Positions 28,194-49,448 are shown, numbered from the stretch's first letter. The stretch is 64,000 nucleotides of DNA from Methanosarcinales archaeon (GCA_048634245.1 JAIWAR010000001.1:13889-77888); one strand, 5' to 3'. Translations and numbers: made by a program. Notes: generated by a model not told the origin, from the letters alone.

Positions 28194-28213
28194 TATAGAG
28201 ACACACAGATTTT

Positions 28214-30148
28214 ATGGCTAATAAGAATAATATTTATGGTAATTTTTTAAAGGGCCTTCAGGTAGCTCTTACCAATACTTCGGTCTATTTTAAAGAACAC
28301 CCTTTTTTTGTAAGGTCTGTAGAGAACTTACGAAAGAATATTGATGAGCTTTTATTGTCAGTAAATCCTTTAATAATGGGTGTTACCTCAGATTCTTTAT
28401 CCTTTGGTGAGGAATATTTAAAAGGAGAAAAAGTATACGAAAAAATAGCTGTTTTTTTTCACCGCCGAAAGGTAAAGGTGATAAGGTTTAATCAAGGAGT
28501 GCGCAACGAGGAATTAATTACTTTTCTTACCAACGCGAATTTATCACCTAAAGATATTTTGTTAAGGGGAGGGCTAAGCAGTATTTTAAGAGAAGCCCGT
28601 CTTGAGCACATTGTAGTTGAAGATTTGGATTATTCACAGCTTTTAAAGGGTAATGATGGGGAAGAATCTAGCGATATCTGGTTATATTTACTGAAGAAGA
28701 GCCTTACCCAGGGTGATTTTAAGAAAATAGACGAGCTGGCTGACGGTTTTCAAAAAGTATTAACGGGGTTTCAAGTCAAAGATTTGGCGGATAGCGAAGA
28801 GATAAAAGGGAATATCAATGAACTTTTCAGTTATCTTAAAAATAAAGATAAGAGCAGGTTTTCTCAATGTTCAAAGGCTTTAACAAGGGCGATTTTAAAG
28901 AGTGGAGGCCGATTAAAAAAAGGTGAGGTTGATAAGTTGAGAATATTCTTGAAGGATTTAAACGCGGAAGATATTTCCAGTGTTTTACTGGAGCAATTTC
29001 AGGGTAAAGGTGAATTAGATCCTTTAAGCCTTAATTTATTTTCCAAACTCATTAACAAAGGAAAGCATGAAGAAGTTGCCGTGTCTTTAGCCAAGAGTTT
29101 AGAAGATGATGAGAGGTTAACGAAAAATACCAAGGTAGCAGCCGGTATTAGAGAGCTGATCTTTTTGCCGGATTCCTCAACCTACGAATCAAAAATTTAC
29201 CATGACCGCCTGGCTTCGATTTTAGGAAATATTACTCTGGGTGCGGGTTTATCTTTTGACCGCAGCCATGTTGAAGGAAACTACCGTCTTATTCTCCTTG
29301 ATTTATTTATCTTAGAACTAAGCTCAAAGAGGCTGGGGCTGGTTCTAGATAGCATTTTGCATGAGCTTGATAAGGTGCCGGAAGAGGCAAGCCCGGAATA
29401 TGTGGAAAGTTTCATAAAAGCGTTGAAGGAAAAGAAGAAAAAAACACCGGAATTTAATTCTCTTTTTCCGGAAGTAAATAAACACATAGCTGCTTTTGCG
29501 GAAAAAGTCATCCTTAGCCAAGATCGCTTTTCGGATCCGGAGGCCTTAATAGATATTATAGATTCCAGCAGCGAGGGAGCAGAATTTTATCTGGATAAAA
29601 TATTTAAGGAAGATAAAGTTAGTCCTTATATTCTAAAATTATTTTTTAAGCTTTTCCCGGACCAACTACCGCTTTTCTGCCAAAATTTTGACAAAAAGAT
29701 TTCTAATATCCGGTTTGTTGAAAAAATTATGGAAAATTTGTTTACTCTGAAGCCGGCTTTGAGCCTTGAGATTCTTAAGCACATCTTTTCTTTGTCCAAT
29801 GGCTTTTTAAAGGTAGAGGCTTTGAAAAAAATGAAAGAATTACATTTAGAGGACGAGGGACTTTTGCTTTCTGTTCTTGATAAAGGAGATTTTTTGCAGC
29901 GCAAGCAAGCCCTTTTAGCTATGCTTGGTAATTCTTTTTTGCTCTCTAAAGCCGCCGGAATGCTTCTGGCCATTTCCAATCCTTTGGGATTGAAGAGCAA
30001 GGTTATTGAAAAAAATTTAAAGCTTATAGGCGAAATTCCTTTTTCCCAAGCCAAGGTGTATTTACATGCGTTAAGTAAATATAAGTTTTTTTGGAATAGG
30101 AGTATAAGAAGAAAGGCTAAAAAGATTTTAGAGAAAAATGGAATTTGA
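28214..30148 (+). CDS. Alpha-helical repeat protein with an N-terminal domain paralogous to that of the downstream HD-GYP protein; function unknown
   Basis: N-terminal ~100 aa alignable with the N-terminus of 30138..31475 (FLK.L......Y..EH..F..S...). The remainder is helical and Leu/Lys-rich. Overlaps the next gene by 11 nt. Confidence 0.5.
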   Translation: MANKNNIYGNFLKGLQVALTNTSVYFKEHPFFVRSVENLRKNIDELLLSVNPLIMGVTSDSLSFGEEYLKGEKVYEKIAVFFHRRKVKVIRFNQGVRNEELITFLTNANLSPKDILLRGGLSSILREARLEHIVVEDLDYSQLLKGNDGEESSDIWLYLLKKSLTQGDFKKIDELADGFQKVLTGFQVKDLADSEEIKGNINELFSYLKNKDKSRFSQCSKALTRAILKSGGRLKKGEVDKLRIFLKDLNAEDISSVLLEQFQGKGELDPLSLNLFSKLINKGKHEEVAVSLAKSLEDDERLTKNTKVAAGIRELIFLPDSSTYESKIYHDRLASILGNITLGAGLSFDRSHVEGNYRLILLDLFILELSSKRLGLVLDSILHELDKVPEEASPEYVESFIKALKEKKKKTPEFNSLFPEVNKHIAAFAEKVILSQDRFSDPEALIDIIDSSSEGAEFYLDKIFKEDKVSPYILKLFFKLFPDQLPLFCQNFDKKISNIRFVEKIMENLFTLKPALSLEILKHIFSLSNGFLKVEALKKMKELHLEDEGLLLSVLDKGDFLQRKQALLAMLGNSFLLSKAAGMLLAISNPLGLKSKVIEKNLKLIGEIPFSQAKVYLHALSKYKFFWNRSIRRKAKKILEKNGI

Positions 30149-34780: not shown

Positions 34781-35225
34781 GCTTAAAGTAATTGGGGTAG
34801 CGGCTTTACCCATTTTTGAGCTGCGCGGTGCTATTCCTCTGGGAGTGTCTTTAGGTATGCCCTTAGGACGTATCTACTTTTTGTCTCTTTTAGGTAATTT
34901 AATTCCCGTTCTACCTTTATTATTACTCTTTAAATATTTTTTTCATCATTTACAGAATATAAAATTCGTCGGTAAGTTTTTTGAGTGGTGGTTTTACAGG
35001 GTAGAGAAAAAGTCAAAGCTTGTTGAGCGTTGGGGTTTTTGGGGTTTAGTCCTTTTTGTGGCAATACCAATGCCGGTAACCGGAGCCTGGACCGGAACGG
35101 CAGCGGCAACGTTATTTGAGCTGTCAACGAGAAAAGCCTTTTTGGCGATCTTAATAGGTGTTGCTATCGCCGGGATAATAGTAAGTTTAGTGGCTAATTG
35201 CGCGGGGGCATTGATAGCCGGGTGA
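34758..35225 (+). CDS. Small polytopic membrane protein (COG2426-like)
   Basis: Four predicted TM helices. PIFELRGAIPLG motif. Confidence 0.5.
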   Translation: MSMVGVNELKVIGVAALPIFELRGAIPLGVSLGMPLGRIYFLSLLGNLIPVLPLLLLFKYFFHHLQNIKFVGKFFEWWFYRVEKKSKLVERWGFWGLVLFVAIPMPVTGAWTGTAAATLFELSTRKAFLAILIGVAIAGIIVSLVANCAGALIAG

Positions 35226-36073
35226 ATTGTAAAATGGCAGAAATAGTAGAGAAAAGAATCTTAGTCGATAGTTTAGGGGTAAGAATTATCCAATTGAAGG
35301 TAAGAGCTCCTTCTATTGCTGAAAAAGCAAAACCAGGCCAGTTTGTGGTTCTGATGACGGGCGAGGAAGGAGAAAGGATACCGTTAACTGTGGTTGAGGG
35401 GGACACAAAGAAGGGTGTTATTACCTTAATTGTTCAAGAAGCGGGGTTAACTACCAAGCTTTTAGGCGCTTTAGAGGTGGGAAAATCCCTTTACGCTTTA
35501 GTCGGCCCCCTAGGACATGCCACTGAGATGAAAAAATACGGAAAAGTAATTTTGGTGGGAGGCGGAGTTGGCATTGCCGAGATTTATCCCGTAGCAAAAG
35601 GGCTGAATAAAGCTGGAAATCACATAACTACTATATTAGGAGCAAGGACAAAAGATCTGTTAATTCTGGAAGAAGAGTTAGGGGCGATATCCGATCAGTT
35701 GCTTATTGCTACCGATGATGGTTCTTATGGGCAAAAAGGCTTTACCACTGATATCCTGAAGAATCTTCTCTATCGACTATCGACTATCGACTATCGACTA
35801 ATTTACGCTGTCGGCCCTATTCCCATGATGAGAAATGTCTCTTTAGTTACTAAAGATTCAGGGATAAAAACTTTGGTATCTTTAAATTCTTTAATGGTTG
35901 ATGCTACCGGTATGTGCGGAAGCTGCCGGGTTACTGTGGGCGGTGAGGTTAAATTTACTTGCGTAGACGGTCCGGAATTTGACGCTTCTTTAGTTGATTG
36001 GGATGAATTAACCAAGAGAAATAAAATATACGCTGAAAAAGAAAAACATATCTGTAATCTTTATAAATTATGA
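35198..36073 (+). CDS. nfnA: NfnA / sulfide dehydrogenase beta-like (PyrK-family FAD/[2Fe-2S] subunit); start probably at MAEIVEK (35233)
   Basis: FNR-like fold with a C-terminal CGSC...C cluster motif. Paired with the downstream GltD-like gene. Contains the heptamer array at 35771..35800. Confidence 0.75.
   Translation: MRGGIDSRVNCKMAEIVEKRILVDSLGVRIIQLKVRAPSIAEKAKPGQFVVLMTGEEGERIPLTVVEGDTKKGVITLIVQEAGLTTKLLGALEVGKSLYALVGPLGHATEMKKYGKVILVGGGVGIAEIYPVAKGLNKAGNHITTILGARTKDLLILEEELGAISDQLLIATDDGSYGQKGFTTDILKNLLYRLSTIDYRLIYAVGPIPMMRNVSLVTKDSGIKTLVSLNSLMVDATGMCGSCRVTVGGEVKFTCVDGPEFDASLVDWDELTKRNKIYAEKEKHICNLYKL
35771..35800 (+). repeat. In-frame heptanucleotide array (TATCGAC)x4 plus TA inside nfnA
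   Basis: 29/30 identical to 110..139. Encodes YRLSTIDYRL in the same codon phase. Confidence 0.9.
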
Positions 36074-37491
36074 GAAAAGAACCGGTAAAAGTAAAAGAAG
36101 TAGATCCGGGCCTTCGGGTGGGCAATTTTGACGAGGTTGTCTTAGGCTACAGCGAGGAAGATGCTCTTATCGAAGCTAACCGGTGTATTCAGTGCAAGAA
36201 TCCTACTTGTATTGCCGGTTGTCCCGTGGCTATTGATATAAAAAAATTTATCTATCAAATTACTCAAAAAGACTATACCGGTGCTTACTTTACAATTAGA
36301 GAAAGGAATGATTTTCCTTCTATTTGCGGAAGGATTTGTCCGGCTGAATATCAATGCCGTAAAGCCTGTGTATTTAGCAAAAAGGGCCAGCCTTTTGCCT
36401 CTAAAGAAGCAATAAATATTCATTTGCTAGAGCGGTTTATTGGCGATTATGGGATAAAGCATTGTAGCCAGGCTCAACACTCAACGACTAACGCTCAACA
36501 TAACAAGAAAGTAGCAATCGTAGGTTCCGGGCCGGCTGGTTTGTGTGTAGCCGGAGAGCTAGGCCGTCAAGGTATAAAATCAATTATTTTTGAAGGACTG
36601 CATAAGACCGGAGGAGTTCTCAGATATGGTATACCGCCTTTTAGGCTGCCCCGGGATATTTTGGATTTTGAGATAGATTATCTTAAAAAGCTAGGGGTTG
36701 AATTTGCGCTTAATGTTATTATAGGGAGGACGAAGACTTTGGACGAACTCTTCTTGGATAATTTTTCAGCTGTGTTTCTAGGCTTGGGTGCCGGGGTGCC
36801 GTCTTTTTTAAAGATAAAGGGCGAGAACTTATGTAATGTTTATTCGGCTAATGAGTTTTTAACCCGCAATAATCTTATGTCGGCATATAAATTTCCTCAA
36901 TTTCATACTCCGATTAATGTCGGTGAGCATATAATTGTTATTGGCGGAGGCAATACCGCCATGGATGCGGCCAGAGTTGCTCTTCGTTTGCAGAAGATAA
37001 GAGGAATTAAACCGAATACTACAGTTTTTTACCGGCGTACTGAGACGGAGATGCCGGCAAGGCGCTTGGAAATAGAGCATGCTAAGGAAGAAGGTATAAA
37101 CTTTAAATTTTTAGTTCAGCCAAGAGGGTTTATTGGCGATGAGTCGGGATTTGTAAGGAAAATAGAGTGCTTAGAGTGCTATTTGGGCGAAGAAGATTCG
37201 TCGGGGAGAAGAAGGCCTGTGCCTATTGAGGGAAGTGAATTTATAAAAGATTGCGATGTGGCTATTGTAGCAGTTGGTTTGGGTGCAAATACTATTCTTA
37301 CCGGTGTTACTCCTCAATTGAAGGTTGATAAATATTCGGATTTAATAGTTGATTCTAAGACTATGCAGACTTCGCTTAAAGGTGTTTATGCCGGGGGAGA
37401 TATAGTTGGTGGTGAAGGCACTGTTATTGAAGCAATGGGCATGGCTAAGATTGCAGCCAAAAGTATTATCGGTTATCTTTTAAATAAATAA
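36070..37491 (+). CDS. nfnB: NfnB / glutamate synthase small-chain-like NADPH oxidoreductase (2x[4Fe-4S], FAD)
   Basis: CIQCKNPTCIAGCP ferredoxin-like cysteines. VAIVGSGPAGL dinucleotide-binding motif. GltD/SudA family. Confidence 0.8.
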   Translation: MRKEPVKVKEVDPGLRVGNFDEVVLGYSEEDALIEANRCIQCKNPTCIAGCPVAIDIKKFIYQITQKDYTGAYFTIRERNDFPSICGRICPAEYQCRKACVFSKKGQPFASKEAINIHLLERFIGDYGIKHCSQAQHSTTNAQHNKKVAIVGSGPAGLCVAGELGRQGIKSIIFEGLHKTGGVLRYGIPPFRLPRDILDFEIDYLKKLGVEFALNVIIGRTKTLDELFLDNFSAVFLGLGAGVPSFLKIKGENLCNVYSANEFLTRNNLMSAYKFPQFHTPINVGEHIIVIGGGNTAMDAARVALRLQKIRGIKPNTTVFYRRTETEMPARRLEIEHAKEEGINFKFLVQPRGFIGDESGFVRKIECLECYLGEEDSSGRRRPVPIEGSEFIKDCDVAIVAVGLGANTILTGVTPQLKVDKYSDLIVDSKTMQTSLKGVYAGGDIVGGEGTVIEAMGMAKIAAKSIIGYLLNK

Positions 37492-37511: not shown

Positions 37512-39047
37512 TTAGAGCAGGGGGAGGTATTTTTTAAGTTCGTGCTGAGTGATCTGGATTCGATACTCTTCCCACTCTTTCTTTTTATTGAATAGAAATC
37601 TGCTAAAGATATGTTCACCAAGAGTATCACGTACAAACTTGCTATTTTCAGTTTCCGTGATAGCTTCAAGAAGATTCCCCGGTAAAGACGTAAGCCCTCT
37701 TCTTTCTCTTTCTTCCATAGCCATATGGTAGATATTAGGTTCAACCGGCGGGGTAAGCTTATATTTTTTTTCTATGCCTTCTAGCCCGGCAGCCAGCATT
37801 ACAGCAAAGGCAAGATAGGGGTTGCAAGCCGGATCCGGACATCTTAGTTCTACCCGGGTTGCTTTTTCATTTCCCGGCCGATATGAGGGAACGCGAAGCA
37901 GGGCAGTGCGGTTTTTTTGAGCCCAAGAAGCGTATACCGGAGCTTCAAAACCCGTAACCAGCCGTTTGTAGGAGTTTACCCACTGAGCAGTCAAAGAACA
38001 AATTTCCCGGGCATGTTTTAACTGTCCGGCAATAAAGCTTTTAGCAATTGTTGATAAGTGATGTTTGTCTTTTTTGTCGAAAAAAGCATTTTGCTTTTTC
38101 GTAAATAGAGATTGATGGACATGCATTCCTGAACCATTCACTCCAAAGAGGGGTTTTGGCATAAAAGTAGCGTATACGCCATTCTGCTGAGCGATTTCTT
38201 TAATTACGTATTTACTGGTTATTACAGCATCAGCCATGGTAAGGGCATCGTTATATTTAAGGTCGATTTCATGCTGGGATGGCGCAACTTCGTGGTGGCT
38301 TGCTTCCATAGGTATGCCTAGCTGTTCTAAGGTTCTTACGGTTCTATTTCTTAAGGTATTGGCTAAATCATTAGGTATTAATTCAAAATAAGAACCTTCA
38401 TCAATAATTTCCGGTTTTTTGTCAGATTTAAAATAAAAATATTCTATTTCCGGCCCCACATAGAATGTAAGGCCCATTTTTTCAGTCCTTGCCATTATCC
38501 GTTTTAAAACATGGCGGGGGTCACCGGCATAAGGAGTGTGGTCAGGATTGAGTATGTCGCAGAACATTCTGACAATTGGGTCTGTTTCTGTTGTCCAGGG
38601 TAATATTTTAAAAGTAGTTGGGTCCGGTAAGGCAATGATATCAGATTCTTGAGCTTCGGCAAACCCGGTAACTGAAGAACCATCAAAGCCTTTTCCGTGT
38701 TCTAAGGCATCCTTTAATTCCCCTTGAGTGATAGAGACGCACTTTAGAGTTCCTAAGATGTCTGCGAACCAAAGCTGTATTATTTTTATGTCGCTTCTAT
38801 ACACTTTCTCCAAGACTTCTTTTATAGCTTCTTTTCTGGGTTTTTTATCCGAAAGAACAAGCTGTGTTTGAGAGTATTTTTCTGTTTTGATTTCTCTTTC
38901 TGAATGAACCTGGTTTTTAGGTATTATGTATCGGTTTCCTACTTTTTCAGCATACAGATTTCCGTTTTTTATACGCTCTACAACAGCTTGACGGGAAATC
39001 CTTAAGATCTTTGCGGCTTGGGCCGGGCTTAAATATTCTTGTTCCAT
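37512..39047 (-). CDS. glnA: Glutamine synthetase catalytic protein fused to an N-terminal excisionase/MerR-type HTH
   Basis: N-terminus LSPAQAAKILRISRQAVVERIKNGNL (HTH). GS signature KPLFGVNGSGMHVHQSLF and a beta-grasp region. It is the only minus-strand gene in the window. Confidence 0.85.
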   Translation of the reverse strand: MEQEYLSPAQAAKILRISRQAVVERIKNGNLYAEKVGNRYIIPKNQVHSEREIKTEKYSQTQLVLSDKKPRKEAIKEVLEKVYRSDIKIIQLWFADILGTLKCVSITQGELKDALEHGKGFDGSSVTGFAEAQESDIIALPDPTTFKILPWTTETDPIVRMFCDILNPDHTPYAGDPRHVLKRIMARTEKMGLTFYVGPEIEYFYFKSDKKPEIIDEGSYFELIPNDLANTLRNRTVRTLEQLGIPMEASHHEVAPSQHEIDLKYNDALTMADAVITSKYVIKEIAQQNGVYATFMPKPLFGVNGSGMHVHQSLFTKKQNAFFDKKDKHHLSTIAKSFIAGQLKHAREICSLTAQWVNSYKRLVTGFEAPVYASWAQKNRTALLRVPSYRPGNEKATRVELRCPDPACNPYLAFAVMLAAGLEGIEKKYKLTPPVEPNIYHMAMEERERRGLTSLPGNLLEAITETENSKFVRDTLGEHIFSRFLFNKKKEWEEYRIQITQHELKKYLPLL

Positions 39048-39266: not shown

Positions 39267-39295
39267 CTTGACTGAATGGTAAAAATGTTGGATAA
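39267..39295 (+). promoter_or_regulatory. Putative carB promoter (TTGACT - 17 nt - GATAAT)
   Basis: -35 element at 39267..39272, -10 element at 39290..39295. Confidence 0.4.
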
Positions 39296-39315
39296 TCATT
39301 TCCAATGTGGATAAA

Positions 39316-39365
39316 GGCGTCCTTTCTGCTTACAATGAAGTAGAAGGGGCGCTTTTTCTGTTTTT
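39316..39365 (+). terminator. Terminator-like hairpin plus T-run inside the carB 5' leader (candidate attenuator)
   Basis: GGCGTCCTTTCT - 14 nt loop - AGAAGGGGCGCT (a 12 bp stem including 3 G-U pairs), followed by TTTTTCTGTTTTT. Lies ~35 nt before the carB ribosome-binding site. Confidence 0.45.
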
Positions 39366-39397
39366 AGGAAAATATATTTTATTATGGAGGGAAAGCT

Positions 39398-42300
39398 ATG
39401 CCGCGATATGAAGATATTAAGAAAATTTTAATTATTGGTTCTGGGCCGATAATAATCGGACAAGCTTGCGAGTTTGATTATTCCGGCACCCAGGCCTGCA
39501 AAGCTTTGAAAGAGGAAGGGTATGAGGTTGTTTTGGTTAATTCCAATCCTGCCACCATTATGACTGACCCGGGTATGGCTGATAAAACTTATATTGAGCC
39601 GCTTACTATCGAAAGCTTAGAAATGATTATTGAGAAAGAGAGGCCTGATGCGCTTCTTCCTAATTTAGGCGGCCAGACCGCCCTTAATCTAACTTCTGGC
39701 CTTCACAAGGCGGGAATTTTAGAGAAATACGGAGTTAAAATTATTGGCGTTGCGGTTGATGCTATTGAACGCGGAGAAGATCGTCTTGCTTTTAAAGAGA
39801 CAATGAATGAACTAAATATCCCTCTTCCGAAATCTGAAATCAGCCATTCTGTTGAGGAGGCTGAAGCTATAGCGCAAGATATAGGGTATCCGGTAGTCTT
39901 GCGGCCGGCTTATACAATGGGAGGAACCGGCGGAGGAATTGTTTATAACGTAGAAGAGTTAAGAACCATTGCGACTAGAGGATTGGCTGTAAGCCTTGTT
40001 CATCAAATTTTAGTTGAAGAAGCGGTTATAGGGTGGGAAGAGTTAGAGTTGGAAGTTGTACGGGATCACAAGAATCAGAAGATTACCGTATGCTTTATTG
40101 AGAATATTGATGCTATGGGTGTGCATACCGGGGATAGCTTTTGTTCGGCCCCTATGCTTACTGTAAAAGAAGAGATACAGAAGAAATTGCAAGAATATTC
40201 TTACCGAATAGTTGACGCAATCGGCGTTGTCGGCGGAACAAATGTTCAATTTGCCCACAATCCTAAGGATGATAGGTTGGTAGTTATAGAGATTAATCCC
40301 AGGACATCCCGTTCTTCAGCCCTTGCCTCAAAAGCAACCGGTTTTCCTATAGCGCGTATTTCGGCAAAGTTAGCTGTTGGGATATCAATGGATGAAATTC
40401 CTTATTGGAAGGAAGGAACGCTGGAGAAGTATGAACCCGGTGGTGATTATGTTGTTATTAAATTTGCCCGCTGGGCGTTTGAGAAGTTTCCTAAAGCAAA
40501 GGATGTTTTGGGAACACAAATGAAGGCTGTTGGCGAGGTAATGAGTATTGGAAAAACATTTAAGGAAGCATTTCAGAAGGCCATTCGTTCTTTGGAGATA
40601 GGCCGGTATGGTTTAGGGGTTGAAAAATTCAAAGCTCTTTCTCTGGGAAAATTAAAAGAAAGGTTAAGCGTACCTTCAAGTGAGCGGATATTCTTGATGT
40701 ATGAAGCCTTGCGTAAAGGTGTTTCTGTTGATGAGTTACACAAAGTTACCCATATTCATCCTTGGTTTATTCAGGAGATGAAGGATCTTGTTGATTTTGA
40801 AGAAGAGATAGCTAAAGATGGATGGAAGGGGTTATCTGATAAAAGGTTAATCAAGGCAAAGGAGTGGGGATTTTCAGATAAGTATTTAGCCGGTTTTTTT
40901 AAGATAAAAGAGAAAGAGGTAAGAGAAAGGAGGACAGGGCTTGGAAAGATTTCTCACTACAATGCGGTTCCGGTTAGCGGGGTAAAAAATGCGGCTTATT
41001 ATTACTCTAGCTATAGTGGAGAAGATGAGGTGCCGGTATCACGGAATAAGAAAATATTAATTTTGGGCGGCGGGCCTAACCGAATTGGCCAGGGTATAGA
41101 GTTTGATTATACTTGTGTCCACGCGGCCTTTGCTTTACGGGATGAGGGGTATGAATCAGTCATGGTAAATTGTAATCCTGAGACGGTATCTACCGATTAT
41201 GATACTTCCAGCAAACTTTACTTTGAACCTCTGACAGTAGAAGATGTGTTGACTATTTACGAAAAAGAAAAACCTGACGGGGTAATTGTCCAATTTGGCG
41301 GACAAACGCCTTTAAATATTGCTCAAGAGCTAGAAGATAACGGTGTAAAAATTTTAGGCACAACGCCGAAGAATATTCGTTTAGCAGAAGACAGAGAATA
41401 TTTTAAGGAGAGGATGATTGCTCTTGATATTCTTCAGCCTGAGAGCGGCATAGCGCGGTCATTGGATGAGGCTGTAGAAATCGCCGGGGAAATCGGTTAC
41501 CCTCTTATGGTACGTCCTTCTTTTGTTTTAGGGGGGAGGGGCATGGAAATTATTTATAATGAGGGAATGCTGCGAAAATATGCCGAACGCGCCATTAAGG
41601 TAAATCCGGAATTCCCCATGCTTATTGATAGATTTCTCGAGCATGCCATTGAGGCGGAAGTCGATGCTCTTTCTGATGGAGAGGATGTACACGTTGCTGC
41701 CGTGATGGAACATATAGAGTTTGCCGGGGTTCATTCCGGTGATTCTGCTTGTGCTATTCCGACCAGGACCATAAAGCAAAAGCATCTAAAGATTATTGAG
41801 GAATATACTGTTAAAATAGCCAAAGAGCTTAGGGTTGCCGGGCTTATGAATATCCAGTATGCTATATGCGATGATAAAGTTTATGTATTGGAAGCTAATC
41901 CCAGAGCATCCCGGACAGTGCCTTTGGTTTCAAAAATTATGGGGCTTTCTATGGCACGCATAGCAACGCAGTTGATGCTTGGTAAAAAAATAAAAGATTT
42001 CCCGGAGCTTAAAAAACCTCGTAAGATTCCTTATGTAGGCGTTAAAGAAGCAGTTTTTCCTTTTAATATGTTTCCTGAAGTTGACCCCTTGTTGGGGCCC
42101 GAGATGAGGGCTACGGGAGAGGTTATGGGAATTGCTGATACTTTTGGGCTCGCTTTTTATAAAGCTCAGGTAGCCGCAAATTTAAAGCTTCCCCTGGAGG
42201 GAAATATCCTGTTTACCGTAACTGATAAAGATAAACCTGAAGTACTTCATGTAGCTAAAGGGTTTAATAAGCTGGGATTTAATATTTACGCTACAGAAGG

Positions 42301-42604
42301 AACCAGCCGTTTTCTTAAAGAAAACGGAATAAGCAATATAGAGGTAAAAAAACTTCACCAGGGAAGACCTAATCTTGCTGATATGATTAAAAACGGAGAT
42401 ATTCATCTTGTGATAAATACGCCTATTGGAAGTAATAGTAAATATGATGATAGCTATATTCGTATTATGGCTATACAGCAGAAGATTCCTTATATAACAT
42501 CCATGGCTGCCGCTCTTGCCAGTCTTGAGGGCGTGGAGGCTCTTAGAAAGGAAAAAACTTTACCAAAGTCTCTTCAGGAATATCATAAAGAGATTAAGGA
42601 TTAA
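39398..42604 (+). CDS. carB: Carbamoyl-phosphate synthase large subunit
   Basis: Two ATP-grasp halves and an MGS-like C-terminal domain over 1068 aa. No carA is adjacent. Confidence 0.95.
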   Translation: MPRYEDIKKILIIGSGPIIIGQACEFDYSGTQACKALKEEGYEVVLVNSNPATIMTDPGMADKTYIEPLTIESLEMIIEKERPDALLPNLGGQTALNLTSGLHKAGILEKYGVKIIGVAVDAIERGEDRLAFKETMNELNIPLPKSEISHSVEEAEAIAQDIGYPVVLRPAYTMGGTGGGIVYNVEELRTIATRGLAVSLVHQILVEEAVIGWEELELEVVRDHKNQKITVCFIENIDAMGVHTGDSFCSAPMLTVKEEIQKKLQEYSYRIVDAIGVVGGTNVQFAHNPKDDRLVVIEINPRTSRSSALASKATGFPIARISAKLAVGISMDEIPYWKEGTLEKYEPGGDYVVIKFARWAFEKFPKAKDVLGTQMKAVGEVMSIGKTFKEAFQKAIRSLEIGRYGLGVEKFKALSLGKLKERLSVPSSERIFLMYEALRKGVSVDELHKVTHIHPWFIQEMKDLVDFEEEIAKDGWKGLSDKRLIKAKEWGFSDKYLAGFFKIKEKEVRERRTGLGKISHYNAVPVSGVKNAAYYYSSYSGEDEVPVSRNKKILILGGGPNRIGQGIEFDYTCVHAAFALRDEGYESVMVNCNPETVSTDYDTSSKLYFEPLTVEDVLTIYEKEKPDGVIVQFGGQTPLNIAQELEDNGVKILGTTPKNIRLAEDREYFKERMIALDILQPESGIARSLDEAVEIAGEIGYPLMVRPSFVLGGRGMEIIYNEGMLRKYAERAIKVNPEFPMLIDRFLEHAIEAEVDALSDGEDVHVAAVMEHIEFAGVHSGDSACAIPTRTIKQKHLKIIEEYTVKIAKELRVAGLMNIQYAICDDKVYVLEANPRASRTVPLVSKIMGLSMARIATQLMLGKKIKDFPELKKPRKIPYVGVKEAVFPFNMFPEVDPLLGPEMRATGEVMGIADTFGLAFYKAQVAANLKLPLEGNILFTVTDKDKPEVLHVAKGFNKLGFNIYATEGTSRFLKENGISNIEVKKLHQGRPNLADMIKNGDIHLVINTPIGSNSKYDDSYIRIMAIQQKIPYITSMAAALASLEGVEALRKEKTLPKSLQEYHKEIKD

Positions 42605-42616
42605 GGAGGAATAGTA

Positions 42617-44134
42617 ATGGCTAGACGGATAGGTTTTGATAATCAAAAGTACCTTAACGAACAAACAGAAGCTATACTGGAGAGAGTAGGGAGATTCAAC
42701 AATAAGCTTTACCTTGAATTCGGGGGTAAGATTATTTTTGACTATCATGCTTCAAGAGTCCTGCCGGGTTTTAATCACAATGTGAAGATGATGCTTTTAC
42801 AAAAACTAAAGGATAAAGCTGATATTATCCTTTGTATATATGCCGGTGATATTGCCCGAAGAAAAGTTAGGGCGGATTTCGGAATTACTTATGATGCAGA
42901 TACTTTAAAACTGATTGATGATTTGCGGAGCTGGGGCATTAATATGGCCGCGGTGGTAATAACCCGTTTTGATAACCAGCCGGCAGCTGAAATATTTAAA
43001 AACAAATTAGAACGCAGAGGCGTAAAGGTTTATACTCATTCTTTTACAAAAGGCTATCCTACTGATGTGGATTTGATTGTAAGCGATGAAGGTTATGGGA
43101 TAAATACTTACATCGAAACTGAAAAGCCTTTAGTTGTAGTTACCGGCCCCGGCCCGGGAAGCGGAAAACTTGCTACTTGCCTTTGCCAGCTTTATCATGA
43201 ATATAAAAGAGGAGTAAAGGCGGGGTATGCAAAGTTTGAAACTTTTCCTATTTGGAATATCCCTCTTAAGCACCCGGTTAATATAGCTTATGAAGCGGCT
43301 ACAGCTGATTTAAGAGATTTTAATCTTGTTGATCCTTTTCATCTGGAAACTTACCAGAAAACGGCAATTAATTATAACCGGGATGTTGAGGCTTTTCCTC
43401 TTGTTGAACGTATATTGGGAAAAATTACCGGGATTGGGAAAATGTATAAATCTCCTACGGATATGGGGGTGAATAAGGCCGGTTTTGGGATTATAGATGA
43501 TGATGTAGTAAAAGATGCCGCAAAACAGGAGATCATTCGCAGGTTTTTTAGGTATAAGTGTGAATACGCAATGGGTCTTTGTGATAAAGGGACAGTCCAG
43601 CGGGTAGAGCTGATTATGAAAGAACTCGGCCTTCAATCTGAAGATCGCTGCGTGGTCAAACCGGCCAATGATGCTCTTTGTGAGGCTGAGAAAAAAAATA
43701 AAGGGCATGAAGGTGTTTTTTGCGGTGCTGCCATAGAGCTTGAAAACAGTTCTGTAATTACAGGAAAGAACTCAGACCTTATGCATGCAGCAGCTAGTCT
43801 TGTGTTTAATGCTATAAAGAAGTTAGCCGGGATACCGGACAAGATTCATCTTTTGTCTCCGGCCATAATAGAGTCAATAGGAAACTTGAAGAAAAATATT
43901 TCAGGTGTAAAAACAATAAGTTTGGATTTAGAAGAGGCTTTGATCGCTTTAAGTATCAGTGCTACTACAAATCCAACAGCCCAATTGGCTATGGAGAAAC
44001 TTAAAGAACTTGGGGGGTGTGAGGTTCATACTACTCATATGCCTACTTCCGGTGATGAAGCCGGCCTGCGTAAGCTGGGAGTCAATCTTACTAGTGCGCC
44101 GAATTTTTCTTCCAAAAGTCTTTTTATAGTATAA
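42617..44134 (+). CDS. Conserved hypothetical protein (505 aa) with a glycine-rich GPGPGSGK loop
   Basis: No confident family assignment by eye. Tightly linked (12 nt gap) to carB. Confidence 0.5.
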
Positions 44135-44230
44135 ATAAAAAAGGGGAGGCTTCTATTTTTTTTAAAAAGATAATCGTAGACGCAAAAAAACAGAAACGTC
44201 CCCTTTTTTTCAAATGATGGAGGTAACAAG

Positions 44231-45655
44231 ATGAGCGGAATGTTTGGTGTGGTTTCAAAGGATGACTGTGCGGATCTTTTGTTTTATTCTACAGATTATC
44301 ACTCCCACTTGGGAACTGAATATGGGGGCTTGGCGATTCTTGGAGACGAATTTGAGCGGCAGATACATAAAATATCTCAGAGTCAATTTAAATCGAAATT
44401 CTATGATGACTATAAGCAGATGAAAGGGAATAAAGGTATTGGCGTTATCAGCGCTCTTGAAGAACAGCCGATATATTTAAATTCTAAATTTGGCCCGTTC
44501 TGTATAGTTACCAATGGGTTTATCGAGAATGCTGAAGAATTAGTAGAAGGCCTTTTTAAAAAAGGGATTTCTTTTGCGGAGGTAATTAAAGGCGGAGTCA
44601 ATACAACAGAACTCATAGCAAAGCTTATTGGCCAGGGAGATAGCATAATAGATGGCATAGAGAAGATGTTCTGCCGGATAAAAGGATCTTGCTCTCTTTT
44701 ATTGCTGAATAAAGACGGGGTATATGCGGCAAGAGACAGATTCGGGTATACGCCTCTTGTAGTCGGAAAACGTGATGGCGTTTTCGCTGTTACTTCTGAA
44801 ACTTGCGCTTTTCCAAATAATGATATTAAGATAACCAAATACGTAGAACCGGGTGAAATAATTTTGATAAGCGAAAGGGGTATAGAGCAGAAAAAATCCG
44901 GCGGAGATGTAAGCCAAATTTGCGCGTTTTTGTGGATTTATGCTGGATTTCCGGCATCAAGCTATGAAGGAATAAATACCGAAGTTGTAAGGGAAAGATG
45001 CGGACATCTTTTGGCTAAACGTGATAAAGATATAAAAGCGGATGTAGTTTCCGGGGTTCCGGATTCAGGAACGGCCCATGCAATAGGATATGCTATTGAG
45101 AGCCGTAGCCCTTACAGAAGGCCGTTGGTAAAATATACTCCCGGGTATGGTAGAAGCTATACTCCACCCTCTCAGGAGACGCGCGACTTGATCGCTAAAA
45201 TGAAGCTTATCGCGATAAAAGAGATAATTGACGGCAATAGAATTATCGTTTGTGATGACTCTGTGGTAAGAGGGACCCAGCTTAAGAATTTTACTGTAAA
45301 GAAGCTTTGGGAGTCAGGTGCCAAAGAAGTTCACGTAAGGCCTGCTTGTCCGCCTTTAATGTTTCCTTGTAAATTCAATTTATCTACGCGCAGCATTCAG
45401 GAACTTGCCGCCAGAAGAGCTATTCGGAATATCGAAGGAGATGATTTAGAAGATGTTTCTGAATACGTTGACTGCGGTTCTGAAAAATATAAAAAAATGG
45501 TAGAGTGGATTGCTAATGATTTAGGAGTTACTACGCTTAGATATCAAACAGTGGATGATATGGTTGAGGCGATCGGCCTGCCTAAAGAGAAACTTTGTCT
45601 TTACTGCTGGACCGGGAAATGTTCAAGGACAACAAAACGCGCGAAAGAGAAGTAA
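44231..45655 (+). CDS. PurF-like Ntn amidotransferase-PRTase with Ser in place of the canonical N-terminal Cys
   Basis: N-terminus MSGMFGV (canonical PurF is MCGIVG). Type I PRTase motif IIVCDDSVVRGTQ. C-terminal CxxC cysteines. Confidence 0.65.
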   Translation: MSGMFGVVSKDDCADLLFYSTDYHSHLGTEYGGLAILGDEFERQIHKISQSQFKSKFYDDYKQMKGNKGIGVISALEEQPIYLNSKFGPFCIVTNGFIENAEELVEGLFKKGISFAEVIKGGVNTTELIAKLIGQGDSIIDGIEKMFCRIKGSCSLLLLNKDGVYAARDRFGYTPLVVGKRDGVFAVTSETCAFPNNDIKITKYVEPGEIILISERGIEQKKSGGDVSQICAFLWIYAGFPASSYEGINTEVVRERCGHLLAKRDKDIKADVVSGVPDSGTAHAIGYAIESRSPYRRPLVKYTPGYGRSYTPPSQETRDLIAKMKLIAIKEIIDGNRIIVCDDSVVRGTQLKNFTVKKLWESGAKEVHVRPACPPLMFPCKFNLSTRSIQELAARRAIRNIEGDDLEDVSEYVDCGSEKYKKMVEWIANDLGVTTLRYQTVDDMVEAIGLPKEKLCLYCWTGKCSRTTKRAKEK

Positions 45656-45679
45656 AAAGGATCTTAGTGGATATTTTTC

Positions 45680-45708
45680 TTTACAAGTTAATGTTGGTAT
45701 TGTATAAT
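45680..45708 (+). promoter_or_regulatory. Strong sigma70-type promoter upstream of hisG (TTTACA - 17 nt - TATAAT)
   Basis: -35 element at 45680..45685, -10 element at 45703..45708, with TG immediately upstream of the -10. Confidence 0.55.
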
Positions 45709-45729
45709 TTGGTTCGCTAAGGATTAAAA

Positions 45730-46605
45730 ATGAAGACATTAAAGTTAGGAATACCTAAAGGGAGTTTGCAGGAGAAGACCTTAGAGCTTTTTCGTATGGG
45801 GGGCTTTAATATCTATCTGAGCCCAAGGTCTTATTTTCCTTCTATCGATGATAGTGAGATCAAAATTGTGCTTATACGGGCTCAGGAGATGTCACGCTAT
45901 GTTGAAGAAGGGGTTTTAGATTGCGGGATTACCGGTGAGGATTGGATTTTAGAGAATGGTTCAAGTGTTTTAAAAGTAGCCCAGCTGTCTTATGCTAAAA
46001 GAACCCTTAATCCGGTAAAATGGGTGGTGGCGGTAAGAGAGGACTCTCGGATAAAGAAATTAAAAGATTTAAAAGGAAAGAGAGTGGCGACAGAGCTGCT
46101 AAAGTACACCAAAAGGTTTTTTAAAGCTAAAAAGATAAATGTGGAAGTGGAATTTAGCTGGGGCGCTACTGAGGTTAAGGTAAAAAGCGGCCTTGTGGAT
46201 GCAATAGTCGAGCTTACCGAAACCGGAGAAAGCCTGAAGGCTAATGGTTTGAAGGTAATTGATGTGGTGTGCTCTTCAACTACACAATTTATCGCTAATA
46301 AGTCTTCTTATAAGAATAATTGGAAGAAGAAAAAAATACAGCAAATTTTGCTGCTGCTTAAAGGAGCTCTGGAAGCCAGGGCTAAAGTCGGCCTTAAACT
46401 GAATATAAAAGAAGAAAGTTTGACTAAGATTTTAGCTATTCTTCCGGCCTTGAAGAAGCCGACGATTTCCCATTTGACTCTAAAGAATTGGGTTGCTTGT
46501 GAGGTTGTTGTGGAAGAGAGCCAGGTGCGTAAAATTTTGCCTTTGTTGAAAGAAAATGGGGCTCAAGGAATAATAGAGTACCCTTTGAATAAAGTAATAT
46601 ATTAG
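45730..46605 (+). CDS. hisG: ATP phosphoribosyltransferase, long form
   Basis: LKLGIPKGSL and DCGITGED motifs. C-terminal regulatory domain. 291 aa. Confidence 0.8.
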   Translation: MKTLKLGIPKGSLQEKTLELFRMGGFNIYLSPRSYFPSIDDSEIKIVLIRAQEMSRYVEEGVLDCGITGEDWILENGSSVLKVAQLSYAKRTLNPVKWVVAVREDSRIKKLKDLKGKRVATELLKYTKRFFKAKKINVEVEFSWGATEVKVKSGLVDAIVELTETGESLKANGLKVIDVVCSSTTQFIANKSSYKNNWKKKKIQQILLLLKGALEARAKVGLKLNIKEESLTKILAILPALKKPTISHLTLKNWVACEVVVEESQVRKILPLLKENGAQGIIEYPLNKVIY

Positions 46606-46751: not shown

Positions 46752-47720
46752 ATGAGATTTTTTCTGATATTAATTATTTCCTGCTTCATTACTCCTTTAT
46801 CCTTTTCTCAAAGTCAAAGGCCTCTCACCGTTCTTTACAGCCATTATTTAAAAGGCCTGGTTTATGTCGAAAAAGGGGAATATCTTCAGGGATTAAAAGA
46901 ATTGGAAATTGCCAAAGCCCAAGACCCTAAATCTGCCCATATTCGTTTAAAAATAGCCTCGGTTTTAATTCGTCTGAATCGCCTTGAGCAAGCCGAAATA
47001 GTTCTAAAGGAAGCTAAAGCAATTGATCCTGATAACCTGGATATTCCTTTAGCTTTAATTTTGGTTTACTCTTACGGAGAAAAGAATGAAGAGCTGGAGG
47101 AGGAATATGAAGAATTTCTAAGTAAAGCTCATGAAAAGAAACCCGAAGACATAGGTATATCCGAATATTTAGCTCAATTTTATTTTTATAAAAAAAGGCC
47201 TCAAGAAGCGATTAAAGCATATGAGAAAATCTTAGAAATTAATCCTAATTATGTGGAAGCGTTTTTTTGGCTGGGTTTTCTTTATGATGAGTGCGGCCAA
47301 CACGAAAAAGCCTTAAAGACCTGGGAAAGAGGCAGGGATATTGATCCTTCTTTTGCTCCCATTTTAAATTGCTTAGGTTATGCTTATGCTCAGGCGGGGA
47401 TAAATCTGGATGAAGCTTTAGGGATGGTAAAAAAAGCCCTGGAAAAAGAGCCGAAAAACGGGGCTTACCTAGACAGCTTAGGGTGGGTGTATTTCAAAAA
47501 AGGGGAATTGGAGAAAGCCAAAAAGTATATTATTGAAGCTCTGGATTTGGTTAAGGATCCTGATATTTATGAACACCTGGGAGATATTTATATTGAGATG
47601 GGTGATAGGGAGACAGGGGTTGATTATTATAAAAAAGGGCTTTTGCAATTCTCTGATTCTGAAGATTTAAAATTAAAAGTCAAAAGATATGAAAAAGAAG
47701 ATAAACCTTCTGAAGAGTAA
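46752..47720 (+). CDS. Secreted TPR-repeat protein
   Basis: Signal peptide followed by multiple 34-aa TPR repeats. Confidence 0.7.
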   Translation: MRFFLILIISCFITPLSFSQSQRPLTVLYSHYLKGLVYVEKGEYLQGLKELEIAKAQDPKSAHIRLKIASVLIRLNRLEQAEIVLKEAKAIDPDNLDIPLALILVYSYGEKNEELEEEYEEFLSKAHEKKPEDIGISEYLAQFYFYKKRPQEAIKAYEKILEINPNYVEAFFWLGFLYDECGQHEKALKTWERGRDIDPSFAPILNCLGYAYAQAGINLDEALGMVKKALEKEPKNGAYLDSLGWVYFKKGELEKAKKYIIEALDLVKDPDIYEHLGDIYIEMGDRETGVDYYKKGLLQFSDSEDLKLKVKRYEKEDKPSEE

Positions 47721-48522
47721 AGCCAATATAATCAGAAAGTCGATTATCAAGATGCTAGCTGAGGCTAAGAGCGGGCATCCCGGAGGATCTCTTTCCGCGA
47801 CCGAAATTGTTACTTGTCTTTATTTTGAAATTATGAATCACAGGCCTAAGGAACCGGATTGGCCGGATAGAGACCGGTTTCATCTTTCTAAAGGGCATTG
47901 CTGTCCTGTTGTTTATTCGGCTTTAGCATTGAGCGGGTATTTTTCTGCTGATAAGCTGATGAGTTTGCGAAAACTTGGTTGTCTTCTCCAGGGCCATCCT
48001 GACCGAAATACTCCCGGTATAGAAGCAGCCAGCGGTTCTTTGGGCCAAGGTTTATCTATTGCTTCGGGTATGAGCTTAGCAGCTAAGATTGATAAGAGAG
48101 ATTATCGTGTTTATTGCCTCATGGGGGATGGCGAACTTCAGGAAGGGAATATTTGGGAAGCAGCGATGTCAGCAGCTCATTTTAAATTAGATAATCTTTG
48201 CGGAATTGTGGATTATAATCACTTTCAGATTGATGGAAGAATTGAAGAGATAATGGAGTTAGCGCCGTTGGTAGATAAATGGGAATCTTTTGGCTGGTAT
48301 GTTATTCAGTGTGATGGACATAATATAGAAGAATTACTTAAGGCGTTTGCAAAAGCAAAAACTATTAAGCAAAAACCTACGGTAATTATTGCCGATACGA
48401 TCAAGGGTAAGGGGGTATCGTTTATGGAAGGCGTGGTTGATTTTCACGGGAGAGCTCCCACTGAAGAAGAAAAAAGCATTGCTTTAGGCGAGTTGGACAA
48501 AAACGATAAAGAGGAAGAGTAA
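47689..48522 (+). CDS. Transketolase, N-terminal (TPP-binding) subunit
   Basis: GHPGGSLS and GDGELQEGN TPP motifs. Split-gene form. Confidence 0.9.
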   Translation: MKKKINLLKSKANIIRKSIIKMLAEAKSGHPGGSLSATEIVTCLYFEIMNHRPKEPDWPDRDRFHLSKGHCCPVVYSALALSGYFSADKLMSLRKLGCLLQGHPDRNTPGIEAASGSLGQGLSIASGMSLAAKIDKRDYRVYCLMGDGELQEGNIWEAAMSAAHFKLDNLCGIVDYNHFQIDGRIEEIMELAPLVDKWESFGWYVIQCDGHNIEELLKAFAKAKTIKQKPTVIIADTIKGKGVSFMEGVVDFHGRAPTEEEKSIALGELDKNDKEEE

Positions 48523-49448
48523 TGGAAAAGGTATATTCTCGTGATACTTACGGAAAAACGCTTCTGGAATTGGGTAAAAAAGATAAGGACGTAATAGTTT
48601 TAGATGCTGATCTTTCCGGCTCAACGCGTACTTCTTTTTTTCGTCGAGAATTTCCTGAGAGATTTTTTAATTTTGGCGTTGCTGAACAAAATATGATGGC
48701 TACCGCCGCCGGTCTGGCTAGTTGCGGTAAGATTGTTTTTGTTTCTACATTTGCCATGTTCGCTACAGCCAGAGCCTTAGATCAGGTAAGGAATTCAATC
48801 TGTTATAATAATTTTAATGTTAAAATTGTAGCTACACATAGCGGAATAACTGTAGGTGAAGACGGTGCGTCACATCAGGCCTTAGAAGATATTAATTTTG
48901 TCAGGGCAATCCCCAATATAAAGATAATTGTTCCTGCTGATGCTCCTCAGGCCAAAGATGCAGTTATTGCCGCGTATGAAAACCCCGGGCCGTTTTATAT
49001 TCGTTTAGGCCGTTCAAAGATTCCTACGCTTAAGATAAAGGATAAGTTTATTTGTGGAAAGGGACAGGTAATCGAAGAGGGTAAAGAATTAGCAATAATT
49101 GCCTGCGGTATTATGGTCTATGAAGCGCTAAAGGCGCGGGAAATTTTAAAAGAAAAAGGAATATCAGCAACAGTAGTGAATCTTCATACCATAAAGCCGA
49201 TTGACGAGGATTTACTTGTAAATATCGCTGCTTCGCATAAGAAGATTCTTGTTTGTGAAGAGCATCAGGTTACCGGCGGCCTTTTTTCAGCTGTATCTGA
49301 GGTGTTGATTCGCAAGCGTCCGACACAGATTGAGCGTATCGGGATAGAGGATGAATTTGGCCAATCCGGTTCACCTCAGGAGTTGATGGATTTTTATGGC
49401 CTCTCCGCTAATTGTATCGCTGAGAAAGCACAAAAATTTTTGCGGTAG
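48522..49448 (+). CDS. Transketolase, C-terminal subunit
   Basis: Pyrimidine-binding and C-terminal transketolase domains. Contiguous with the N-terminal subunit gene. Confidence 0.9.
   Translation: MEKVYSRDTYGKTLLELGKKDKDVIVLDADLSGSTRTSFFRREFPERFFNFGVAEQNMMATAAGLASCGKIVFVSTFAMFATARALDQVRNSICYNNFNVKIVATHSGITVGEDGASHQALEDINFVRAIPNIKIIVPADAPQAKDAVIAAYENPGPFYIRLGRSKIPTLKIKDKFICGKGQVIEEGKELAIIACGIMVYEALKAREILKEKGISATVVNLHTIKPIDEDLLVNIAASHKKILVCEEHQVTGGLFSAVSEVLIRKRPTQIERIGIEDEFGQSGSPQELMDFYGLSANCIAEKAQKFLR

Follow-up and report, generated by a model that had tools for sequence, protein, structure and literature searches.

A 64,000-nucleotide (nt) stretch of DNA (GCA_048634245.1, JAIWAR010000001.1:13889-77888; filed as Methanosarcinales archaeon and hereafter called the window) carries four consecutive genes on its plus strand: carB, encoding the carbamoyl-phosphate synthase (CPS) large subunit (39398-42604, 1,068 amino acids [aa]), a 505-aa open reading frame (ORF; 42617-44134), a 474-aa PurF-like ORF (44231-45655), and hisG (45730-46605). 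Here, we report that the 505-aa protein is, on full-length alignment, an ortholog of PyrJ, an ammonia-dependent cytidine triphosphate (CTP) synthase, and we propose, tentatively and at a probability of about 0.45, that carB, pyrJ, and the purF-like gene form an operon of ammonia-using isozymes for three nucleotide entry steps that otherwise depend on glutamine. Such a role is likely for PyrJ, where it is supported; it is plausible for the PurF-like protein and circumstantial for this CarB, which falls in a clade that we call CarB1.

ORF coordinates agree exactly with the positions, the order, and the 12-nt gap between carB and the 505-aa gene given in an initial annotation, made by a model from the sequence. 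That annotation had also proposed looking for the neighborhood in relatives: the order glnA (divergent)-carB-DUF1846-PurF-like-hisG is kept in six related species (L009 to L013 and L015, where L-numbers label homologous loci compared with the window; protein identity, 78 to 90%), so the arrangement is real and selected, not a product of chance. The closest homologs of the window PyrJ and CarB lie in metagenome-assembled genomes (MAGs) of Candidatus Omnitrophota, and the window genome is itself a Candidatus Omnitrophota MAG. When GTDB was searched with the window CarB, taking one genome for each species, 80 loci were returned, onto which CarA, CarB, PyrJ, PurF, and PyrG were mapped; pyrJ occurs no more than 10 kb from CarB1 in 31 of them and next to it in 17, and a PurF-like gene is present in 13.

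PyrJ

The 505-aa protein (pyrJ, 42617-44134, plus strand; putative ammonia-dependent CTP synthase) matches both DUF1846 Pfam domains end to end (PF08903, E = 7.8e-167, profile positions 1 to 332 of 333; PF20921, E = 2.4e-53, positions 2 to 153 of 153), as had been guessed when it was first described as DUF1846/UPF0371-like, and it scores 754 bits against NF010184 (“hypothetical protein”; cutoff, 631 bits). Its GPGPGSGK motif (aa 177 to 184, nt 43145-43168) is a Walker A motif, or P-loop. Over its whole length, the protein lines up with the Streptococcus pneumoniae structure PDB 7f00 (residues 4 to 499; 48% identity over 496 residues) and with Corynebacterium diphtheriae DIP2346 (PDB 3bh1), both of which share its two-domain architecture, length, and P-loop. 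The full-length alignment with the S. pneumoniae protein marks it as a PyrJ ortholog and not as a replacement for CarA.

S. pneumoniae PyrJ (SPD_0310) is synthetically lethal with pyrG, a defect rescued by cytidine, and the purified enzyme converts uridine triphosphate (UTP) to CTP with ammonia, not with glutamine (bioRxiv 10.1101/2024.09.24.614635). According to the same preprint, members of the family join a P-loop ATPase domain to a cytidine-deaminase-like fold and occur mostly in Firmicutes and Actinobacteria, and about 31% of genomes with pyrJ are without pyrG. The Clostridioides difficile family member is essential. From its likeness to the S. pneumoniae enzyme, the window PyrJ is expected to be an ammonia-dependent CTP synthase; it differs from known PyrJ proteins in coming from a Gram-negative candidate phylum and in being embedded in a carB1/purF-like operon, and its function is predicted.

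The initial annotation had raised the option of a novel partner in place of CarA; on this reading, the 505-aa protein would supply CarB with nitrogen. The 12-nt gap and the adjacency to CarB1 at 17 of 80 loci speak for such a partnership; we nevertheless regard it as effectively refuted. The DUF1846 family has its own reported activity, an ATP-dependent amination of UTP with NH3 that uses no glutamine, and its fold (P-loop ATPase plus cytidine-deaminase-like) is not that of a glutaminase; it is widespread in Firmicutes and Actinobacteria whose carAB is normal. In other Omnitrophota, pyrJ is found away from carB, between kdsB and kdsA in CP070807.1 and beside nadA elsewhere. Because KdsB consumes CTP, the adjacency of pyrJ to kdsB fits a role as CTP synthase.

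The CP070807.1 locus (L001:9199-13990) reads kdsB-pyrJ-kdsA-kdsD-kdsC-lptC-(lptA not called)-lptB, a cluster for 3-deoxy-D-manno-oct-2-ulosonic acid and lipopolysaccharide.

PurF-like protein

The 474-aa ORF (44231-45655, plus strand) encodes a PurF paralog in which the glutaminase half appears dead and the half that transfers from 5-phosphoribosyl-1-pyrophosphate (PRPP) appears intact; among Pfam families it matches only GATase_6/7. It begins MSGMFG, with Cys1 replaced by Ser (44234-44236), and the first description of a Cys-less PurF-like enzyme therefore stands. The Ser had also been taken for the nucleophile, and this part of the description does not hold: in an exhaustive HMMER search for the family (969 cluster representatives at E < 1e-30), the position of Cys1 is occupied by S, G, T, A, or D (full-length relatives start MSG, MGG, MTG, MAG, or MDG), a variability that argues against a nucleophile.

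An alignment to Escherichia coli PurF and to Omnitrophota PurFs of the canonical kind (beginning MCG, with LQHRGEES and FCTACF) showed that the family has lost its glutamine-binding residues too: LQHRGQ (R26/G27) has become DYHSHLG (44294-44314), an 8-aa deletion (after 44452) removes the R73/Y74 loop, and D127 is replaced (by T in the window; 44600-44611). Kept throughout the family are VPDSG (45056-45070), the Lys and Arg of the flexible loop (K..GRS, here VKYTPGYGRSY; 45128-45160), the DDSxVRGT PRPP loop (CDDSVVRGT; 45251-45277), and four cysteines of the Bacillus subtilis [4Fe-4S] type (within ICAFLW, 44918-44935; ACPPLMFPC, 45344-45370; and CLYCW, 45596-45610). Among PDB structures, B. 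subtilis PurF 1ao0 matches best (E = 2.5e-55). The protein thus has the phosphoribosyltransferase core, PRPP loop, flexible loop, and four cluster cysteines of B. subtilis PurF (PDB 1ao0 and 1gph), but it is without the Cys nucleophile, the loop that binds glutamine, and D127, its C-terminal part contains about 28 extra aa that are specific to the family, and it scores 206 bits against TIGR01134, below the equivalog cutoff of 350.

Neighbors of the family were tallied at 80 metagenome loci: purM (7), carB (6), canonical purF (5), LOG-like genes (5), purS-purL (4), and purB (3). In Muribaculaceae, the PurF-like gene directly follows purL, and a canonical Cys1 PurF coexists with the PurF-like protein in the same cluster at L038 and L085. 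From its residues, the protein is plausibly a phosphoribosylamine synthase limited to free ammonia. It might instead be a pseudoenzyme or regulator, or a PRPP-transferase acting with a different nucleophile, as could be read from its low PurF score, from the insertion together with the strongly conserved remodeled motif TDYHSHLG (a hint that the dead domain binds something), and from its usual coexistence with canonical PurF. We consider these options improbable, since the family retains its PRPP loop, flexible catalytic loop, and Fe-S cysteines and since recurrence beside purM, purL, purS, and purB fits the purine pathway.

At metagenome loci, for example L123:6534-7223, the LOG-like gene is met repeatedly a short way upstream of PurF-like genes.

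CarB1

The window carB (39398-42604, plus strand) scores 1,519 bits against NF003671 (cutoff, 599) and 1,392 bits against TIGR01369 (cutoff, 1,027), and its Pfam architecture is full length (CPSase_L_D1 twice, D2 twice, D3, and MGS), with two ATP-grasp halves and an oligomerization domain. Many Omnitrophota carry two carB genes, one of the window type (CarB1) and a second, E. coli-like one (CarB2). Identity to E. coli CarB is about 51% for CarB1 and 60% for CarB2, and CarB1 and Omnitrophota CarB2 share 52%; within the CarB1 clade, identity is 62 to 88%, with members in Omnitrophota, Verrucomicrobiota, Thermodesulfobacteriota, Lachnospiraceae, and cultured Monoglobus. The gene directly upstream is carA at 1 of 68 CarB1 loci and at 10 of 11 CarB2 loci, and CarB1 stands alone, far from any carA, at 69 of the 80 loci and in cultured Monoglobus. 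By sequence and context, the window carB belongs to a separate “orphan” clade without a carA of its own.

Per-domain identity did not discriminate between models; only an analysis of fixed differences did. Against 13 canonical CarBs from six phyla (E. coli, eight CarB2, Bacillus, Tsukamurella, Leptospira, and Fusobacterium), CarB1 has 11 fixed differences, all in residues 89 to 540 and none in residues 554 to 1073 (Fisher P = 0.0014; columns invariant in both groups, 140 and 112, respectively), and near-fixed differences number 22 in the N-terminal half and 2 in the C-terminal half. The fixed differences include R265Q and the loss of VDTCAAEF, which is replaced by VPVSG with a 3-aa deletion; K214E, Y261Q, and F348Y with I352G are further changes. 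In the window, the signature residues are E214 (40031-40048), Q261/Q265 (40169-40192), YEPGGDY (40430-40450), and VPVSG (40967-40981). Position 265 is Arg in none of 85 CarB1 sequences and in all 13 canonical ones. R265 and VDTCAAEF are invariant in the CarA-partnered CarBs sampled, and the window CarB lacks both.

Catalytic and carbamate-tunnel residues are intact in CarB1, as are the ammonia-gate residues (C232 and A314 in 85 of 85 sequences, A251 in 84 of 85) and the allosteric residues T977, K993, N1015, Y1040, and T1042. Work on the E. coli enzyme by Thoden et al. in 1997 and by Kim and Raushel in 2004 is said to place the ammonia site and the small-subunit contacts in the N-terminal half, and R265 reportedly belongs to a set of three residues at which mutation perforates the tunnel for ammonia, abolishing the use of glutamine but not of ammonia. 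If so, the fixed changes specific to the clade would be confined to the half that faces ammonia and CarA. A structural study of human CPS1 confirms the gate residues and notes that E. coli variants with a blocked or perforated tunnel stay active with ammonia (PMC4655335).

Compared with E. coli CarAB (PDB 1jdb and 1bxr), CarB1 is likewise full length, with four domains and the same functional residues; it differs in having no carA of its own, in R265Q, Y261Q, I352G, K214E, and the VPVSG replacement, and in coexisting, in related genomes, with a true E. coli-like carA-carB2 pair. The proposed formation of carbamoyl phosphate from free ammonia with no glutamine hydrolysis would liken CarB1 to human CPS1 (PDB 5dot) and to the Methanobrevibacter smithii CPS. 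CPS1 differs in its covalently attached dead glutaminase domain, its need for N-acetylglutamate, and its retention of R265 and, we assume, of the DT[CL]AAE motif, whereas CarB1 would stand on its own as a full-length bacterial large subunit. CPS1 is thought to admit NH3 by an alternative path along the subunit interface (PMC4655335), and the M. smithii enzyme is cited in PMC6022934 as a small ammonia-using CPS.

In the main rival reading, CarB1 would be an ordinary second large subunit of a glutamine-dependent CPS (for example, one of an arginine-specific and a pyrimidine-specific isozyme, as in Bacillus) served by a CarA next door or elsewhere, the cluster being only a co-regulated set of nitrogen-incorporating nucleotide genes. 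We rate this as a real possibility, short of even odds. The genes carA-carB2-carB1 are contiguous (gaps of 15 to 50 nt) in at least eight loci, and L056 reads carA-carB1-carB2; canonical purF and pyrG occur in the same clusters, CarB1 retains every catalytic, tunnel-gate, and allosteric residue, and unlinked carA and carB are known from Leptospira. What such a subunit would leave unaccounted for is the confinement of the CarB1 changes to the ammonia- and CarA-facing half, where they hit R265 and VDTCAAEF, and the distance from any carA at 69 of 80 loci and in Monoglobus. In addition, the two commonest companions of CarB1 are without glutaminase function, PyrJ demonstrably and the PurF-like protein evidently.

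A relationship to the Firmicutes PyrAB type was considered and rejected, because Bacillus velezensis PyrAB (carA adjacent, in the pyr operon) is 49% identical to CarB1 and keeps R265 and VDTCAAEF. In cultured Clostridia, Monoglobus pectinilyticus NZ_OY725726.1 (L174:14938-18153) has an isolated CarB1-type carB (64% identity, Q265, VSG motif) with a DUF305 gene on one side and a pectinesterase gene on the other. Three distant Omnitrophota carry a conserved cassette upstream of carB1 (L006:5537-7871, L007:4109-6553, and L008:5255-7938) that encodes a PF27218/MJ0043_C protein, a flavodoxin-like protein, and a SLOG/LOG-like protein. From its N-terminal motif MKF[IV]ADFHIHSKYS alone, the PF27218/MJ0043_C protein was read as a putative EndoQ-like PHP repair protein, the Pfam scan giving no hit. 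The cassette was rejected as a hidden substitute for CarA, as none of its three proteins has a homolog in the window.

Search for carA and clustering of the two gene sets

The initial annotation had described carB without an adjoining carA, and no carA was found anywhere in the 64-kb window. Among the window ORFs of at least 150 aa, 51 of 55 were scanned by Pfam and none matched PF00988 or PF00117; the remaining four are 151 to 245 aa long, too short for CarA. tblastn of the window with E. coli CarA or Omnitrophota CarA gave nothing, and no carA lies within 10 kb on either side of the locus in the six related species. A second carB, a canonical purF, and pyrG were likewise absent from the window (Pfam and tblastn). 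The premise that carB is almost always next to carA was too strong, since separation is not rare (Leptospira carB, for example, lacks an adjacent carA). Canonical carA does exist in Omnitrophota, directly upstream of CarB2. A profile search with 11 Omnitrophota CarA sequences gave at least 120 near-equal hits, and those listed lay outside window-lineage contigs and complete genomes.

Elsewhere, the glutaminase-less genes cluster with their glutamine-dependent counterparts, so that for each of the three reactions a glutamine-dependent enzyme stands in the cluster with a paralog or analog without glutaminase. L085 reads carA-carB2-carB1-purF-pyrJ-purFlike-pyrG, and L032, L051, and L073 have the same order without the purF-like gene. 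At L025 and L046, pyrJ-carB1 is followed by carA-carB2-purF-pyrG; at L034, carB1-pyrJ is followed by carA-carB2-pyrG; and L026 has one block of carB2-purF-pyrG and a separate block of carB1-pyrJ. A clean physical split between the ammonia set and the glutamine set was considered as strong evidence and dropped, as it holds at L025, L026, L034, and L046 and the sets are interleaved at many other loci. The window’s lineage shows the glutaminase-less trio only, beside glnA and, in a relative, gdhA.

The checks bearing on the reading in the initial annotation are divided: the 505-aa protein falls in a family with a reported function and a canonical carA occurs in the phylum beside a different carB, but the linkage of carB1 to pyrJ is widely conserved.

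Proposed mechanism and its weighing

We read the region as an operon that comprises a promoter, a leader hairpin, carB1, pyrJ, and purF-like, arranged back to back with glnA, with hisG probably transcribed from its own promoter. If the three genes do encode ammonia-using isozymes, PyrJ would convert UTP, ATP, and NH3 to CTP, a reaction shown for the S. pneumoniae homolog and suggested here by 48% identity. The PurF-like protein would form phosphoribosylamine from PRPP and free NH3, in keeping with its dead glutaminase half and its intact PRPP-transferase half and Fe-S site. CarB1 would make carbamoyl phosphate from bicarbonate, two ATP, and free NH3 without the CarA glutaminase; this is the weakest of the three steps. 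Omnitrophota that have the trio in addition to carA-carB2, purF, and pyrG would then be able to bring nitrogen into nucleotides by two parallel routes, of which the one from ammonia would be useful when ammonium is plentiful or glutamine scarce.

The initial annotation had suggested noncanonical nitrogen donation. Of this, the general idea survives, with PyrJ reported to use only ammonia, the glutaminase of the PurF-like protein destroyed, and CarB1 in a separate clade; DUF1846 as a substitute for CarA and Ser as a nucleophile do not. A precedent in concept is offered by the NadE NAD synthetases, of which paired NH3-dependent and glutamine-dependent isozymes exist. There, too, amidotransferase-free, ammonia-using versions of otherwise glutamine-dependent enzymes are found in one organism or lineage, whereas here three different pathway-entry enzymes appear clustered.

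Several points weigh against this assignment. The roles of CarB1 and the PurF-like protein are predicted from sequence and context, and the structural meaning given to R265 and to the CarA-contacting half is taken over from work on the E. coli enzyme. In vitro, E. coli CarB and PurF can themselves use NH3, which may make “ammonia-dependent” a question of degree. The two sets are interleaved in many clusters (carA-carB2-carB1-purF-pyrJ), where CarA could simply serve both CarBs, and a canonical carB can be unlinked from carA, as in Leptospira. CarB1 without carA is, moreover, a pattern seen at the level of the locus (the window and 10 kb on either side). The activity of PyrJ rests on one preprint, and an earlier paper, from 2022, named the same DUF1846/UPF0371 protein a hemin binder (PMC9238395).

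A stronger version of the ammonia-using proposal would make CarB1, the dead-glutaminase PurF, and PyrJ a dedicated, glutamine-independent, co-regulated module in Omnitrophota and scattered other anaerobes (Verrucomicrobiota, Elusimicrobiota, Thermodesulfobacteriota, and some Clostridia), on which the window’s lineage may rely alone. CarB1 would in that case be a free-standing CPS with no small subunit, its ammonia entry naturally opened or remodeled. We rate this version as less likely than not.

Glutamine amidotransferases are the textbook entry of nitrogen into purines and pyrimidines, and PyrG was long thought to be the sole CTP synthase. PyrJ is already known. Neither the orphan CarB1 clade and its N-terminal signature, nor the PurF family with its dead glutaminase, nor the clustering of the two with PyrJ turned up in the literature searched. 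Those searches gave nothing relevant on orphan or ammonia-dependent bacterial CarB or on Cys-less PurF and no description of three clustered glutaminase-less pathway-entry enzymes. If the ammonia-using assignment is true, many anaerobes would have a parallel, glutamine-independent nucleotide synthesis. Metabolic reconstruction from MAGs would change, because CarB1 and Cys-less PurF are now automatically annotated as ordinary carB and purF, and duplicated “carB” and “purF” calls would be explained. The clade would offer a natural experiment on the opening of ammonia tunnels to bulk solvent, and PyrJ, known from one preprint, would gain a conserved genomic context that backs its role.

Leader, promoters, and hisG

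The glnA-carB intergenic region (350 nt) contains a promoter-like site for the carB operon (TTGACT-17 nt-GATAAT, 39268-39296, plus strand; consensus scan, 10 of 12 matches), both hexamers of which are kept in five of six aligned relatives. About 17 nt after it and about 30 nt upstream of the carB start lies a leader hairpin with a T-run (39313-39366, plus strand; terminator scan, 19 pairs plus T tract), which is attenuator- or terminator-like. The hairpin is kept in all seven genomes of the lineage; changes in its main stem are one-sided (G-C/G-U), and the three pairs with changes on both sides lie outside the main stem. No Rfam family matches the hairpin, and across the leader and the rest of 35 to 47.5 kb Rfam gave no riboswitch or PyrR site, only two subthreshold chance hits. 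On its predicted structure, the element looks like an attenuator.

The last of the four genes, hisG (45730-46605, plus strand), encodes a long-form ATP phosphoribosyltransferase (TIGR00070, 179 bits, cutoff 76; TIGR03455, 100 bits, cutoff 40), and its catalytic HisG domain and C-terminal regulatory HisG_C domain (Pfam) agree with the form first assigned to it. Its inclusion in the functional grouping was not sustained: it has a promoter-like site of its own (TTTACA-17 nt-TATAAT, 45680-45708, plus strand; 11 of 12 matches, the top score in the scanned region), which suggests that hisG can be transcribed alone, and it is adjacent only in the window’s lineage (L009, L011 to L013, and L015). It is probably a neighbor that shares PRPP and stands outside the mechanism.

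Neighboring and remaining genes

Divergent from carB is glnA (37512-39047, minus strand), which encodes a type I glutamine synthetase (TIGR00653, 501 bits; Gln-synt_C, E = 4.5e-128; Gln-synt_N) with an N-terminal HTH_17 domain (aa 5 to 47). The layout is the same at L009, L010, L012, and L013, and glnA also adjoins carB1 at L030 and L042. The fusion of this excisionase-type DNA-binding domain to glutamine synthetase is kept in relatives (80 to 81% identity), and the enzyme may double as a transcription factor in the intergenic region that glnA and carB share. Before glnA lies an NfnAB/SudAB-like pair (35198-37491, plus strand; PRK06222 and a GltD-like protein, TIGR01316), which in one relative (L002) is followed by gdhA. 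Together, glnA, this pair, and, in the relative, gdhA give the neighborhood an ammonia-assimilation flavor.

The remaining window genes include a division and cell wall (dcw) cluster, pilus genes, recQ, glmU, prs, dnaB, bamA, and lpxD. Many of the compared loci that are clearly Omnitrophota by sequence (L011 to L014, L017, L024, L027, and others) are titled “uncultured Planctomycetia bacterium,” and these titles are probably taxonomic mislabels in MAG submissions.

At the end of the dcw cluster (26251-30148, plus strand), an ftsQ-like gene is followed by a very divergent FtsA-like ORF (381 aa; PDB FtsA at E = 0.07 only), and the expected place of ftsZ is taken by a 644-aa ORF that matches nothing in Pfam or the PDB; next comes a gene for an HD_5-domain protein. 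Transketolase is split into two genes (47689-49448, plus strand), one for the N-terminal thiamine pyrophosphate-binding part and one for the pyrimidine-binding and C-terminal part, whose reading frames share 1 nt where they meet.

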